From an uncultured Nitrosomonadales bacterium (GTDB lineage: Bacteria; Pseudomonadota; Gammaproteobacteria; Burkholderiales; Gallionellaceae), in the NCBI GenBank assembly GCA_903885165.1, contig CAISHO010000084.1, forward strand, positions 6,813-70,812: a DNA stretch of 64,000 nucleotides. Direction: 5' to 3'. The notes below the pieces were generated by a model. It ran no database searches. It was not told where the DNA came from and was given only the letters and a program-made list of their open reading frames with translations. This document shows positions 27,534 through 60,833 of this stretch, piece by piece (the first letter of the stretch is position 1; each line of letters opens with the position of its first letter). Both the position numbers and the translations under genes were made by a program.

Positions 27534-27615
27534 ATCACCTGCCTGTCAAATTGCAAAACTCGCGCAGCATACCCGATACAACCCCTTCCCCGCTAATGCT
27601 AAAAACTAAAGGGGT

Positions 27616-27630
27616 GCGGCAATATGTCGC
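27616..27630. promoter_or_regulatory. RegA/RegR/PrrA-type binding box
   Basis: GCGGC-AATAT-GTCGC, an exact match to GCGGC-N5-GTCGC, 66 nt upstream of the next ATG. Confidence 0.6.
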
Positions 27631-27695
27631 AGCGCCACTCGCCTGCACTGCTATAAAATTACACTAATTTGATTATTTTTCTACAGGATACCCGC

Positions 27696-28718
27696 ATGAA
27701 ATACCTTAAAATTTCACTGAGCATCGCATTAGCCCTGACAACCATCACCTCCGGCAGTAACGCGTTCGCCTGCGCCGCTTGCGGCTGCACCCTATCCAAA
27801 GACTGGGAAACACAAGGCATCACCACCAAACCCGGCTTCTCTGCCGACTTATCGTACGATACGCTCAACCAGAACCAGCAACGTTATGGCTCAGGAAAAG
27901 CATCCGGCGCGCTGATCAACACACTGAACACCGCTGGTCAGGAAATTGAAGCCTTTACCAAGACACAAACCGTGACTGCTGCGCTCAACTATAGCGGTGA
28001 GACAGTCGGCGTGAGCATACAGATTCCTTTCGTCAACCGCACACACGGCACTTATGGCAATCCTGCGGGCGTAACCGGACCAGTGGGAACCAGTTATTCA
28101 ACTTCTAGCGACAATAGTCTGGGCGATGTGCGCATCATCGGCCGCTACACCGGCTTTTCTGCTGAAAAAACATCTGGCATCATAGCCGGCATCAAATTAC
28201 CTACCGGCAACACCGGCGCGACATTTACTGCGGGCACCAATGCAGGAGCCGCACTTGATTCCGGTTTGCAAATCGGCACAGGCTCTACCGACCTTATTTT
28301 AGGCGGATACACCTCCGGTTCGTTTAACAAATACGGCTGGTTTGCACAGGGCACCGTGCAACACGCGGTTGCAACCGATCTGTCAACGACTGGCACTTAC
28401 CGCCCGGGCGATGCCTACACATTAAACACCGGCCTGCGCTATGCCGAGTTCGGCGCAAAAATCACCCCCATGCTGCAACTGAACATCATCAAACGTCAGG
28501 CCGACACCGGCACCAGCGTTCCTGTTGATCAGTTGAATTTTTCCACGCCTATCAGCGGCGGCACACTGGCTTATCTGGCACCGGGCGCATCCATGCGTTT
28601 AGGCGGCGGCACCTCAGTCTACGGCTTCGTCCAACTGCCAGTTTACCAATCGGTCAACTCGTTGCAACTCGCCCCCCAATACACATTAACCCTGGGTGTG
28701 AGACAATCCTTCGAATAA
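27696..28718 (+). CDS. Predicted outer-membrane beta-barrel protein with N-terminal CxxCxC motif
   Basis: Sec signal (AFA|C), mature N-terminus CAACGC, alternating aromatic beta strands, C-terminal LGVRQSFE. Confidence 0.75.
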   Translation: MKYLKISLSIALALTTITSGSNAFACAACGCTLSKDWETQGITTKPGFSADLSYDTLNQNQQRYGSGKASGALINTLNTAGQEIEAFTKTQTVTAALNYSGETVGVSIQIPFVNRTHGTYGNPAGVTGPVGTSYSTSSDNSLGDVRIIGRYTGFSAEKTSGIIAGIKLPTGNTGATFTAGTNAGAALDSGLQIGTGSTDLILGGYTSGSFNKYGWFAQGTVQHAVATDLSTTGTYRPGDAYTLNTGLRYAEFGAKITPMLQLNIIKRQADTGTSVPVDQLNFSTPISGGTLAYLAPGASMRLGGGTSVYGFVQLPVYQSVNSLQLAPQYTLTLGVRQSFE

Positions 28719-28738
28719 TCACTTCGAAGCTGCCTATC

Positions 28739-29230
28739 GTGAATACAACGTATCGTTTCCTGTCCATCAAAGCAATGCTCTGCACCTTGCTGCTGAGTTT
28801 ATCCTTCAGTTGCGAGGCTGAAACCTGGTCGCTCAAGGATAAGGAAGGCGTGCGTTATACCTCAGCCGGATTGCAGGGGCGCTGGGTGTTGGTCAACTTC
28901 TGGGCACCCTGGTGCCCGACCTGTTTACAGGAAATTCCCGAACTGGATGCGCTCCAAGCGAAACACAAGGACGTACTAGTAATCGGCGTCGCGGTGATGT
29001 ATAAAAACCGCAAAGAAGTGATGGAAATCGTGCACAACCAACCGGTCACCTACCCGGTGGTATTCGGCTCTGAAGACACAGCCAGCGATTTCGGCGGGAT
29101 GCCGGGCCTACCGACGAGTTTCCTATATTCCCCGTCAGGGAAACTGGTTGGCCGCCATTCAGGGCCGCTCACCCAATACGACATCGAACAGGCCATAGAA
29201 CAAGGTTCCAAGGCGCTGTTTAGCCTTTAG
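28739..29230 (+). CDS. TlpA/ResA-like thioredoxin disulfide reductase
   Basis: LVNFWAPWCPTC, GLPTSFLY cis-Pro loop, N-terminal signal or anchor. Confidence 0.9.
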   Translation: MNTTYRFLSIKAMLCTLLLSLSFSCEAETWSLKDKEGVRYTSAGLQGRWVLVNFWAPWCPTCLQEIPELDALQAKHKDVLVIGVAVMYKNRKEVMEIVHNQPVTYPVVFGSEDTASDFGGMPGLPTSFLYSPSGKLVGRHSGPLTQYDIEQAIEQGSKALFSL

Positions 29231-58376: not shown

Positions 58377-60833
58377 ATGAGCAAGAAACACGCACAGCAT
58401 GATTTTGACCAACTACGCTGTGCAGCCAAGGCTAAGCTGGCCAACGAACCACAGCCCAATGTGCCGGATCTCTCATTCGAAGCGTTGCTACATGAGTTGC
58501 AAGTGAATCAGATTGAGCTTGAGGCACAGAATGAATCATTGCGCCAGGCTCACATTGAGATGGAAGAATCTCGCGACCGTTACGTGGATTTTTATGATTT
58601 TTCACCCGTCGGTTATCTCACTCTCAACCAAGATGGCATGATAGTCGAGATAAACCTCACCGGCGCCGAACTGATCAGGGAAGATCGCCAAAAAATCCTT
58701 AAGCGCCGCTTCTCCACTTACATTACCACGGAATACCAAGACAACTGGCATAGATATTTCATGTCTGCGCTTAAAAATACAAATGGGTTTCGTTGTGAGC
58801 TGGTTCTGCAACGCCGTGATGGCTCACGCATCTTCACACAATTGAATGGTTTGCGCCTGAAGAAAGATGGCAAAGATCCAGTAGTACGCATCGTGCTGAC
58901 TGATATTACTGAACGCAAGCAGGCTGAGGAGTTGCTTCACGAAAGCAATGATCGACTTGACTTTGCATTTAAGGGTTCTGGTGATGGCATGTGGGACTGG
59001 GATGTCACCACGGCCATGGTAAGGTATTCAGTGCTATGGAAATCCATGCTGGGCTATGACGATGGCGAACTTGCTAATGAATTTGAAGAATGGGAGCAGC
59101 GTGTTCATCCGGATGATTTGCCCAAGGCCTTGGCTGATATCAAATCCTATTTGCATGGTGAGACATCCGTTTATAACAATGAACATCGTCTATTGTGCAA
59201 AGACGGTAGCTATAAATGGATACTCACTCGCGGCATTGTGAGGAGTCGCGCTGCGGATGGAACGCCTCAACGCTTGATTGGCACACATACAGATATTTCT
59301 GAACAGAAAAAAATAGAGGAATCACTGCGCATCTCAGCGACAGCATTTGAGACTCAGGAAATCATCATGGTGACCGATGAGCGTGCTGTCATTGTTCGCG
59401 TTAACAGCGCATTCACGAATCTGACGGGTTATAGCGAAGAAGAGGTCATTGGTAAACTGCCATTCATTCTTCAATCAGGGCGTTATAACGCAGCCTTTTA
59501 CCAGTCTCTTTGTGAGGCAATTGGTCGTGACCATAACTGGCGGGGAGAAATATGGGGCCGGCGCAAGGACAGTACAGAATTTTTGGCGCAGCTCAGCATT
59601 TCTGCAGTAAAGGATAAGGGATGGATTACGTCGCATTATGTCGCTACTTGGCGGGACATAACCGCGCAAAATCATGCCGAGGAGCAATTGCAACTTTCGT
59701 TTCGTAAACTGGAAGAAAAGGAATTAGCTAAGACCAGATTTCTTGCCGCAGCCGGACATGACCTGCGACAACCATTGGCAGCCGCCCAAATGTTTATCTA
59801 TGCGCTCAATGCAGGCAACCCCACTACGGAACAAAAGGATCTGATCCAAAAGTTGATGTCCTCAATGTCTACTTTTAAAGATCTGCTTGATGCTTTATTG
59901 AATTTGTCAAAACTTGATTCTGGCAGGATTAAATCTAAATGCGAGCCGATTAATATACCGAATTTAATGATCTGGTTGGAAGCCCACTTTGCGCCTATCG
60001 CAAGGGAGAAAAAACTTGTAATAAACCTATATTTTTCATTGGCTGAGATAATTAATATTAGTTCTGATCACGGCTTGCTTAAATCGGTGCTGATAAATTT
60101 GGTTGCTAATGCCATCAAATTTACCACTAGTGGTGCCATTCTATTGAGCGCCAGACGTCGCGGCAAGGATGTGCTGTTTCAGGTCTGGGATACTGGGATT
60201 GGAATTGCAGAAGAAAACTTGCAACATATCTTTGAAGAGTTCTATCAGATAGATAATCCACAAAGAGATAGGGTCAGCGGTCTGGGATTGGGCTTACCCA
60301 TCGTGAAACGCACCTTGGATTTATTGGGAAGTGAAATTAGATGTCATTCAAAACTTGGTCGTGGATCAGTTTTTGAATTTCGTTTACCAATCTTGATGAC
60401 TTACGATGTAACGCTGCTGCGGAATGTGATGACGGTGCAAAACAATCAGGCTGACTATTCTTTTCTGCTAGGGAAACAGTTTGTTTTGATTGAGGATGAC
60501 ATGCTTTTAAAAGAAGCCACAACAGCATGGATAGAAGCAGTGGGAGGCCACGTGGCAGTCTTTGATAGCGCCGAAAGTGCCTTGGAGTACGCAAATATTG
60601 AAGGCGCCGATTACTACATTGTTGACCACATGCTGAAAGGGAAACTGAGTGGAATTGATTTTCTGAATATGCTTTATAAAAGAACTTGCAAGTCCATCAA
60701 TGCGGTACTGGTGACAGGTAATACATCAAATGAACTTGTTCGTGATGCAGATGGTTTTAAATGGCCGGTACTTTTTAAACCAGTTAATGCGTACAATTTG
60801 GTTTCCTGCCTTACTGAGGAAGTATCAAGGTAA
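58377..60833 (+). CDS. Multi-PAS hybrid sensor histidine kinase with C-terminal receiver domain
   Basis: Three PAS/PAC domains, AAAGHDLRQPL H-box, NLVANAIKFT, VWDTGIGI, GLGLGL; receiver IEDD...VDH...LVTG...FKP. Confidence 0.93.
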   Translation: MSKKHAQHDFDQLRCAAKAKLANEPQPNVPDLSFEALLHELQVNQIELEAQNESLRQAHIEMEESRDRYVDFYDFSPVGYLTLNQDGMIVEINLTGAELIREDRQKILKRRFSTYITTEYQDNWHRYFMSALKNTNGFRCELVLQRRDGSRIFTQLNGLRLKKDGKDPVVRIVLTDITERKQAEELLHESNDRLDFAFKGSGDGMWDWDVTTAMVRYSVLWKSMLGYDDGELANEFEEWEQRVHPDDLPKALADIKSYLHGETSVYNNEHRLLCKDGSYKWILTRGIVRSRAADGTPQRLIGTHTDISEQKKIEESLRISATAFETQEIIMVTDERAVIVRVNSAFTNLTGYSEEEVIGKLPFILQSGRYNAAFYQSLCEAIGRDHNWRGEIWGRRKDSTEFLAQLSISAVKDKGWITSHYVATWRDITAQNHAEEQLQLSFRKLEEKELAKTRFLAAAGHDLRQPLAAAQMFIYALNAGNPTTEQKDLIQKLMSSMSTFKDLLDALLNLSKLDSGRIKSKCEPINIPNLMIWLEAHFAPIAREKKLVINLYFSLAEIINISSDHGLLKSVLINLVANAIKFTTSGAILLSARRRGKDVLFQVWDTGIGIAEENLQHIFEEFYQIDNPQRDRVSGLGLGLPIVKRTLDLLGSEIRCHSKLGRGSVFEFRLPILMTYDVTLLRNVMTVQNNQADYSFLLGKQFVLIEDDMLLKEATTAWIEAVGGHVAVFDSAESALEYANIEGADYYIVDHMLKGKLSGIDFLNMLYKRTCKSINAVLVTGNTSNELVRDADGFKWPVLFKPVNAYNLVSCLTEEVSR

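Follow-up and report, generated by a model that had tools for sequence, protein, structure and literature searches.

The stretch of DNA considered here (hereafter the window, 64,000 nt in all) comes from an uncultured Nitrosomonadales bacterium of the family Gallionellaceae, a freshwater iron-oxidizing bacterium (GCA_903885165.1, contig CAISHO010000084.1, positions 6,813-70,812 of the forward strand), and the subject of this work is a two-gene unit within it, whose first gene encodes a predicted outer-membrane β-barrel with a cysteine motif at the start of the mature chain and whose second gene encodes an exported thioredoxin-fold protein. On the basis of the letters alone, the original prediction had described this unit as a candidate metal or thiol import module, preceded by a perfect GCGGC-N5-GTCGC box. 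The box is indeed present at 27616-27630 (GCGGCAATATGTCGC), where pattern matching and conservation identify it as a RegA/PrrA-type site, that is, an imperfect GCG...CGC inverted repeat. It is followed, on the plus strand, by a -10 element (TATAAAAT, 27652-27659), recognized from the TATAAT-like hexamers that stand at a fixed spacing in homologous promoters, and by a Shine-Dalgarno AGGA (27685-27688), which direct reading of the sequence places 7 nt before the ATG of gene 1. Gene 1 (27696-28718, plus strand) codes for a 340-aa protein of an unnamed family, and gene 2 (28739-29230, plus strand) for a 163-aa protein; the latter starts 20 nt after the end of the former. A consensus scan retrieved no terminator between the two genes, which are presumed to be co-transcribed.

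The assignment of gene 1 to a family was not straightforward. The protein does not match any Pfam or NCBIfam model (PF13557 included, even at E 10), nor does a profile search against PDB sequences retrieve any match for it; its 780 homologs in a large protein database are all labelled hypothetical, the closest ones belonging to Gallionella and Sideroxydans metagenome-assembled genomes. An exhaustive search revealed at least 930 clusters at 50% identity, distributed among Proteobacteria, Acidobacteria and Planctomycetes; the family is widespread beyond iron oxidizers. The AlphaFold 2 model built on 89 diverse sequences exhibits 12 strands, with a mean pLDDT of 90.7, and a Foldseek search with this model retrieved FapF (E 2e-14) and the COG4313 channel Pput2725 (4rl8, E 3e-11), with TM-scores of about 0.6-0.7. 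Moreover, some distant members of the family just reach PF13557 (Phenol_MetA_deg) at 22.3-23.4 bits, against a cut-off of 22. The link between gene 1 and these proteins is thus based on the fold search and on distant relatives and not on direct sequence matches. According to the model, gene 1 very likely encodes a 12-strand outer-membrane barrel, in agreement with what had been predicted from the sequence.

The most peculiar trait of this barrel is the beginning of its mature chain. The 25-aa signal peptide (27696-27770, plus strand; MKYLKISLSIALALTTITSGSNAFA) ends with A-F-A, and it is followed by the mature start CAACGCTLSKDW, i.e., the CAACGC announced by the original prediction; the mature N-terminal segment as a whole (CAACGCTLSKDWETQG, 27771-27818, plus strand) represents the signature of the family, as judged from its invariant cysteines and from the variants of the motif found in the superfamily. 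The cleavage site N-A-F-A|C, with alanine at -3 and -1 and a polar residue at -4, is of the signal-peptidase-I type, and homologs keep A/V-x-A before the cysteine, with polar or acidic residues at -5 and -4 (E, D or N at the latter). The sequence does not fit the lipobox [LVI][ASTVI][GAS]C either in gene 1 or in its homologs, and in relatives of a second branch the cysteine stands at +2 (ASCG), a position incompatible with lipidation; hence, the A/V-x-A site preceded by polar residues, together with the cysteine at +2, indicates that the family is not lipidated, and the lipoprotein interpretation was discarded, as the first reading had also maintained. The same holds for a c-type cytochrome or a Cyc2-like protein: the residue following the second cysteine is G, D or E and never H (CAACGC, CAACDS), CXXCH is not found, and there is therefore no attachment site for heme c.

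In 36 close homologs of gene 1, the residues C26, C29, L33, S34, W37 and Q40 are invariant, and no further cysteine is present in the mature protein outside the N-terminal motif. Within the superfamily, the mature N-terminus always carries a cysteine motif directly after the signal peptide, and three types can be distinguished: type A, CxxCGC(T/S)L(S/N)xDW; type B, SCGxxFCxxNTxW; and type C, CACGCGVF. The form CxxCGC is the dominant one in the more distant type-A members. In the model of gene 1, a segment of 21 residues precedes strand 1, with a mean pLDDT of 80 at residues 31-40 and below 50 at residues 18-28. By analogy with the fold relatives, this segment might be a putative metal-binding plug or gate.

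As for gene 2, the original claim of an exported CPTC thioredoxin is confirmed: the protein matches the Pfam families Redoxin and AhpC-TSA (both at E ~1e-14) as well as Thioredoxin, it exhibits the active site WAPWCPTC (the CPTC being read at residues 59-62, positions 28913-28924 of the plus strand) and it possesses a cleavable signal sequence ending in SCEA|ETW (AxA site). Its nearest relatives are ResA (E 1e-15), DsbE/CcmG and TlpA (1jfu, E 1.5e-8). The further proposal that it is TlpA was correct at the level of the TlpA/ResA/CcmG family, to which the Pfam and NCBIfam matches assign it as a thiol:disulfide reductase, and not beyond that level: its scores remain below all the NCBIfam equivalog cut-offs, with 53.7 bits versus 230 for TlpA (NF047696), 69 versus 170 for ResA and 49.6 versus 123 for DsbE. 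On sequence grounds, then, gene 2 belongs with the reductases of the TlpA/ResA/CcmG type without being an equivalog of TlpA. The start of the gene is uncertain between a GTG at 28739 and an ATG at 28775, neither of which is preceded by a clear Shine-Dalgarno sequence; the longer form (GTG, 28739) has the positively charged n-region expected of a signal sequence (R6, K11), and its length agrees with that of the homologs.

To evaluate the pairing and its surroundings, 79 loci harboring relatives of gene 1 (type-A sample) were fetched from species-representative genomes, and 80 loci of the second branch of the barrel family (type-B sample) were also considered; neighboring genes were counted within 6 kb of the barrel gene, and copper genes among them were identified by family models. 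The expected link between homologs of gene 1 and thioredoxins was found: in 57 of the 59 loci from Gallionellaceae and Mariprofundales (Zetaproteobacteria), a thioredoxin homolog lies directly 3′ of the barrel gene and on the same strand, with WCPPC (30), WCPTC (7), WCPSC (5), WCEPC (4) and other sequences at the active site. In Burkholderiales relatives the thioredoxin gene abuts the barrel gene convergently, while among type-B loci PCuAC holds the downstream slot in several of the 10 (out of 80) that harbor this gene. The genes beside the pair, on the other hand, differ among genomes and include lnt, an amidase gene, a cysteine synthase gene, nirK-like clusters and others; in the window they are housekeeping genes, i.e., lnt (divergent, its start lying 83 nt from the box on the opposite strand), a GIY-YIG gene and thrS on the upstream side, while the gene after the pair codes for an S4/pseudouridine synthase. 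Since the flanks change and the pair stays, barrel and thioredoxin move as a unit. In two Gallionellaceae loci (L051:7037-7681, and the equivalent position of L052) a cytochrome b561 gene (PF01292) replaces the thioredoxin gene after the barrel; this cytochrome may represent an alternative electron source for the cysteine motif. A literature search covering COG4313, Phenol_MetA_deg, barrels with N-terminal cysteines and copper in Gallionellaceae/Sideroxydans retrieved no paper on the barrel family, in line with the earlier statement that no functional characterization of this pairing was known.

Taken by itself, the box of the window would have little meaning. The strict GCGGC-N5-GTCGC has a single match in the whole window, GCGGCAATATGTCGC itself, where 0.32 are expected by chance and 30 of 100 shuffled sequences contain at least one; the relaxed form GCGNC-N5-GNCGC occurs three times versus 2.98 expected, the other two matches (8929 and 51749) falling inside open reading frames (ORFs). 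A single match in the window is not beyond chance, and the significance of the box derives from its conservation across orthologous promoters and not from statistics within the window. Indeed, about 48 of 57 Gallionellaceae-type loci carry GCG[AG]CAAT[AT]TG[CT]CGC upstream of the orthologous gene, and where it is conserved it stands at about -75 to -130 relative to the start codon; the distance between the end of the box and a TAnnnT -10 hexamer is 23 nt in 40 of 46 loci; in the window, 21 bases separate the box end from TATAAAAT. The conservation across homologs that the original prediction had indicated as a check was thus found, and a chance origin of the box was discarded on this basis. 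In the 836 kb of fetched loci the pattern occurs 59 times: about 49 of these matches immediately precede the barrel gene, and the others lie mostly upstream of regBA-like or copper genes. The same box also precedes regB/regA-like, PCuAC, Csp1, Sco and MbnP genes, and similar boxes precede type-B members in 21 of 75 loci, as well as Holophagaceae and Phycisphaeraceae members.

The position of the box is also informative. No canonical -35/-10 promoter was found by the consensus scan before gene 1, the -35 hexamer being unrecognizable, and the predicted transcription start follows the center of the box by about 42 nt, so that the box covers the site of the absent -35 element, an activator position close to the promoter. 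A -10 element without a -35 element suggests a sigma-70 promoter that is activator-dependent. Positions 4 and 12 of the box vary without covariation, and the commonest form (GCGAC...GCCGC) would place an A-C mismatch in a stem; the independence of these two positions points to a protein-binding site and not to an RNA stem, and the hairpin interpretation was rejected for these reasons. Some promoters carry two or three boxes in a head-to-tail array of exact 15-bp periodicity, as in L054 (at 164, 179 and 194; L054:164-208), in L055 (1894-1923) and upstream of the type-B barrels of L103, L113, L125, L152 and L153, which suggests the cooperative binding of several regulator dimers at those promoters. 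In five other loci (L033, L038, L040, L044 and L045) the strict box is absent, and two genes with multicopper-oxidase domains (NirK-like) and a di-heme cytochrome c gene are found directly upstream of the barrel-thioredoxin pair.

Which regulator might recognize this box? PrrA/RegA proteins are described as recognizing an inverted GCG repeat of degenerate sequence (PMC4263372), and ActS/PrrB/RegB- and ActR/PrrA/RegA-like genes are found no more than 6 kb from the barrel gene in 28 of 159 loci belonging to several phyla (14 of 79 type-A and 14 of 80 type-B loci); the 14 type-A loci include one Mariprofundales, two Holophagaceae and one Phycisphaeraceae genome. The linked kinases align over their full length with NF033792 (ActS/PrrB/RegB) at 191-253 bits, and the linked regulators, composed of a receiver domain and a Fis-type helix-turn-helix (NISATARALNMHRRTLQRKL), have NF033791 (ActR/PrrA/RegA) as their best NCBIfam model, again at full length and with 146-200 bits. 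All the 21 kinases examined possess both GG(S/V/P)xNP(F/L) and a cysteine located at +38 to +43, mostly +40, from the phospho-histidine; by reference to RegB of R. capsulatus, we take GGxxNPF to be the quinone site and the cysteine about 40 residues after the phospho-histidine to be the redox cysteine. The kinase of L037 was discarded, being AtoS-like and unrelated to RegB, while the kinases truly adjoining the barrel match RegB. A reverse search was performed on 80 regA-like loci of Betaproteobacteria and Gammaproteobacteria; in this set the box is present at the regB promoter in 38 of 70 regB loci, and six loci have a barrel gene alongside; the occurrence of the box at regB promoters indicates autoregulation. 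RegBA-like genes also occur in related Gallionellaceae. Judging from sequence comparison, we hold with high confidence that the box is the site of a RegA-family regulator, and regulation of the pair by RegA-type proteins seems quite likely.

Two further observations concern this branch of RegB/RegA. In ten Gallionellaceae loci (L161, L162, L171, L174, L175 and L178-L182) PCuAC is transcribed divergently from regB, whose promoter mostly carries a box; a parallel arrangement exists in Rhodobacter, where regB and regA flank the Sco homolog senC/prrC. Besides, many RegB-like kinases encoded next to barrel genes (L051:4444-5829 on the minus strand, L052, L029, L056, L059 and others) exhibit a Met/His-rich loop between the transmembrane helices TM5 and TM6, with sequences such as PHSEPAMPSNTGMAGMDGMAHDMGGMSPDN, PHMHMPGEN and QPHQHQHHDASD. 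This loop, which on the basis of RegB topology presumably faces the periplasm, resembles Cu(I)-binding Met motifs, and its composition might mean that this branch of RegB senses copper directly.

The neighborhoods of the homologs point to copper, which the original prediction had named, beside other soft metals, as a possible target of the barrel. The recurring neighbors are PCuAC (PF04314), DUF2946 (PF11162), Csp1 (TIGR04401, above cut-off), SCO1/SenC, MbnP with its di-heme peroxidase partner MbnH, and DUF2282, along with TonB-dependent receptors with PepSY_TM, TonB and ExbBD. PCuAC was found in 10 loci of each type, often as the next gene downstream and in the same orientation, DUF2946/CruR immediately before the barrel gene in 7 type-A and 4 type-B loci, Csp1 in 5 loci, and Sco and DUF2282 in 2 each; overall, a copper gene of any kind is present in 19 of 79 type-A and 14 of 80 type-B loci. 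The most complete arrangement is that of L043 (100-7900), where the order is MbnH-like peroxidase, MbnP, SCO1/SenC, Csp1, RegA, barrel, thioredoxin and DUF2282, and where five RegA-type boxes lie within 2.7 kb (3183, 3493, 4948, 5153 and 5805), one before each transcription unit. In L018, L008 and L028 a TonB-dependent receptor, PepSY, TonB and ExbBD adjoin Csp1, barrel, thioredoxin and PCuAC.

Some of these neighborhoods deserve a separate description. A small exported cysteine-containing DUF2282 protein follows the thioredoxin in L043 (7554-7889) and in L055 (4606-4896); we take DUF2282 to be a family of precursors of bufferin-type copper-binding peptides. In seven loci from Limnohabitans, Polynucleobacter and other Burkholderiales (L060-L063, L066, L070 and L072), DUF2946/CruR is followed by the barrel gene and by a convergent thioredoxin gene (AhpC-TSA/Redoxin) that ends at the barrel stop codon; the latter is followed by DUF2244 in L060, L062 and L072, and in the first two of these by PCuAC as well. 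All seven loci are devoid of a RegA-type box. Its absence from CruR-headed loci suggests that copper control may act there via the CruR upstream ORF, DUF2946 being known as a copper-sensing upstream ORF that heads copper-acquisition operons repressed by copper (PMC9426467).

Based on these data, we suggest that the two genes form an operon for outer-membrane copper supply, activated by RegB/RegA and provided with a dedicated thiol reductase; to this model as a whole we assign a probability of roughly 0.55, and copper as the substrate is, taken alone, an even bet. According to the model, a RegA-like regulator encoded elsewhere in the genome would bind the GCG...CGC repeat near -42 and would activate the sigma-70 promoter lacking a -35 element. 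The barrel, cleaved by signal peptidase I, would be inserted into the outer membrane in its 12-strand form, and the CxxC(xC) N-terminus (21 residues, holding the only thiols of the protein) would lie in or under the lumen, by analogy with COG4313. Its thiolates could either bind Cu(I) as such or generate it from Cu(II) by reduction, and the metal might then be passed to PCuAC, Sco and Csp1 for cuproenzymes such as heme-copper oxidases, while gene 2, as a soluble periplasmic reductase, would keep the CxxC in the dithiol state or return it to that state. In this chain of events we infer the binding of RegA, the identity of copper as substrate, the inward direction of transport, the position of the plug and the reduction by thioredoxin.

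Several data weigh against the copper-supply model. Neither regBA genes nor a copper gene near the pair were found in the window, whose only two-component-like ORF (58377-60833, plus strand, about 818 aa) has weak similarity to histidine kinases and receiver domains, as in a hybrid kinase, and was rejected as an ortholog of either RegB or RegA. The kinases and regulators linked to the barrel in other genomes fall under the NCBIfam equivalog cut-offs (350 for the kinase and 250 for the regulator), and a thioredoxin gene is rare next to type-B relatives (4 of 80); copper genes, too, occur within 6 kb of the barrel in only about a fifth of the loci. The N-terminus with three cysteines, on which the original mechanism relied, was upheld for the first two, which are invariant, and not for the third, in whose place about one third of the close homologs (Gallionellaceae) have D, S, G, H, T or Y, so that the core of the motif is CxxC; these cysteines are modelled at low confidence, and the plug position derives from the fold family. 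Lastly, no RNA runs containing the locus were found, the DNA runs with it being freshwater metagenomes. The original interpretation is, on the whole, partly supported: sequence comparison bears out most of it, with three corrections, which concern the CxxC core, the family-level status of gene 2 and the box, significant only by its conservation.

Among the other explanations, the one that competes most closely with copper supply considers the barrel as a channel gated by thiol/disulfide exchange for a non-copper substrate, either a hydrophobic or a sulfur compound, in which the CxxC would be a redox latch opened by the thioredoxin and the copper genes would simply be fellow members of a RegBA regulon. 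The relatives by fold (Pput2725, TcpY and SphA) are linked to the uptake of hydrophobic molecules, and COG4313 proteins in general are thought to carry hydrophobic compounds; a copper gene is missing from the surrounding 6 kb in about 80% of the loci; RegBA systems regulate redox responses globally and their regulons hold many respiratory genes, so that copper genes could be co-members and not partners; and genes for rhodanese and cysteine synthase occur near some loci. However, housekeeping genes separate these last two from the pair, no catabolic or sulfur-oxidation genes recur in operon position, and the neighbors that do recur are specifically copper handlers, among them CruR as the gene immediately before the barrel and PCuAC, in the same orientation, as the one immediately after it; we therefore regard this channel as unlikely. 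Less probable still is a role in tolerance to copper or soft metals, with the barrel as an exit or sequestration site like PcoB/CopB and the thioredoxin repairing copper-oxidized thiols. Such a role would fit the storage of copper by Csp1, the DUF2282-type peptides adjoining the pair and the occurrence of Cys-rich motifs and periplasmic thioredoxins in copper-stress systems (the Scs system, PMC10907172), but genes for CopA, CusCBA, a CueO/PcoA multicopper oxidase or CopR/CusR do not recur beside the pair, the promoter carries a RegA-type box in place of a site for CueR or CusR, and PCuAC, Sco, OprC-like receptors with PepSY, MbnP/MbnH and CruR operons are all tied to acquisition and cuproenzyme assembly.

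It might also be argued that the cysteines form just a structural or assembly disulfide and that gene 2 is a general reductase of cytochrome c maturation (CcsX/CcmG/ResA), placed beside the barrel by chance or by respiratory co-regulation. The closeness of gene 2 to ResA and DsbE/CcmG, its CPTC, which is a CcmG-type active site, and the presence of cytochrome genes among RegBA regulons would agree with this idea. Nevertheless, the pair stays adjacent in dozens of genomes in spite of changing flanks, no ccm, ccs or resBC genes flank it, relatives devoid of the thioredoxin carry PCuAC in the equivalent position, and a CxxC disulfide would be unable to fasten the plug onto the wall, as the mature barrel has no other cysteine; all this makes the idea very improbable. 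As to the box, one could attribute it to chance, or assign it either to lnt, the divergent gene, or to a different transcription factor, given the 0.32 matches expected per window and the 83 nt that separate it from lnt. This is hardly credible, because the box follows the barrel gene at a fixed spacing from the -10 element while lnt is upstream in only part of the loci, because about 49 of the 59 matches in the fetched DNA lie directly upstream of the barrel, and because regBA-like promoters carry the same box.

If the copper-supply model is correct, its implications go beyond this genome. Reviews list three routes for copper across the outer membrane, i.e., general porins, the TonB-dependent OprC/NosA, and chalkophores (PMC7558416). 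In its broadest form, our proposal is that the barrel family might represent a fourth route, independent of TonB energy and based on a cysteine plug with either thioredoxin recycling or direct handover to PCuAC, and that the RegB/RegA of beta-, gamma- and zetaproteobacteria might be the master regulator of a copper-delivery regulon (barrel-thioredoxin, PCuAC, Sco, Csp1 and MbnPH), whose kinase would sense periplasmic copper via the Met/His loop in addition to quinone redox; this extension is tentative and, as a whole, rather doubtful. What was already known is the barrel fold, the class of the reductase and the class of the regulator; what is new is the family of barrels with a putative cysteine plug, which is constantly accompanied by either a reductase or a copper chaperone and would belong to a sharply defined RegA-type regulon for copper delivery. 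A large unnamed family with no Pfam model thus carries a conserved thiol motif and is tied to copper chaperones and to RegB/RegA by gene order and by a common box. Gallionellaceae depend on cbb3-type oxidases, and the model, if true, would show how microaerophiles such as these obtain copper; it would also provide TlpA-type reductases with an outer-membrane client and RegB/RegA with a concrete copper-supply regulon, which bears on the Sco homolog lying between the regB and regA genes of Rhodobacter. Among the carriers of the family that can be cultivated are Thiobacillus thioparus, Massilia and Noviherbaspirillum.

The comparison with known systems helps to define what is peculiar to this operon. 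In terms of fold, the closest ones are COG4313/Phenol_MetA_deg (Pput2725, 4RL8; TcpY; SphA) and FapF (5O65), which share with gene 1 the 12-strand barrel of about 300 residues and, in alignments, GD and KLPTG-type motifs. In the structure of Pput2725, the lumen is almost closed by the residues preceding strand 1, which are folded into it (PMC4493636); unlike gene 1, this protein lacks the N-terminal cysteine motif, and cysteine is unmentioned in the paper describing it (PMC4493636). The genetic context differs as well, since COG4313 members lie among aromatic-catabolic genes, whereas the family of gene 1 has a thioredoxin or PCuAC as partner, a RegA-type control and a neighborhood of copper genes. 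Among the outer-membrane barrels of iron-cycling bacteria, Cyc2 is a fused cytochrome-porin and MtrB has an N-terminal CXXC; like gene 1, they carry a cysteine motif near the mature N-terminus, but gene 1 has no heme site and its barrel is much smaller than that of MtrB.

Concerning gene 2, it shares with TlpA, ResA and CcmG (DsbE) the exported thioredoxin fold, the WCxxC and the cis-Pro GlPTSF region; it differs from them in having a cleavable signal peptide in place of a membrane anchor and in its proposed client, since no member is known to act on an outer-membrane barrel. Prior to their metallation, Sco and CoxB have the cysteines of their copper sites reduced by TlpA (PMC7558416). With respect to the RegB/RegA systems (PrrBA, ActSR, RegSR, RoxSR), the box fits GCGNC-N5-GNCGC, the linked regulators and kinases have the domains and motifs given above, and the system would be autoregulated through the same box. 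The differences are that the beta/gamma/zeta branch scores below the equivalog cut-offs, that many of its linked kinases have the Met/His-rich TM5-TM6 loop, that the box is unusually sharp here (GCGRCAATWTGYCGC) while the alphaproteobacterial consensus is weak, and that the targets seen, in an analysis that did not extend to oxidase genes, are copper-delivery genes and neither photosynthesis genes nor structural genes of oxidases.

As for copper acquisition itself, the operons headed by CruR offer the nearest parallel. In the seven Burkholderiales loci mentioned above and in four type-B loci (L115, L118, L124 and L131), a DUF2946 with CxxC and RAPP motifs stands directly before the barrel, which occupies the slot of the copper-uptake genes in the published operons; these also hold PCuAC, Sco and AhpC_TSA genes (PMC9426467). 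The operon of the window departs from this scheme, having a RegA-type box in place of DUF2946, and the barrel family is not named in the published survey. OprC and NosA resemble gene 1 in being outer-membrane proteins for which copper uptake through cysteine-containing sites has been proposed (CxxxM-HxM in OprC), and their neighborhoods likewise include PCuAC, PepSY and DUF2946; for OprC, a thiol-mediated reduction of Cu(II) has been suggested (PMC7558416). They are, however, 22-strand barrels energized by TonB, whereas gene 1 encodes a small 12-strand barrel devoid of a TonB box and of a plug domain, which may depend on a periplasmic reductase instead.

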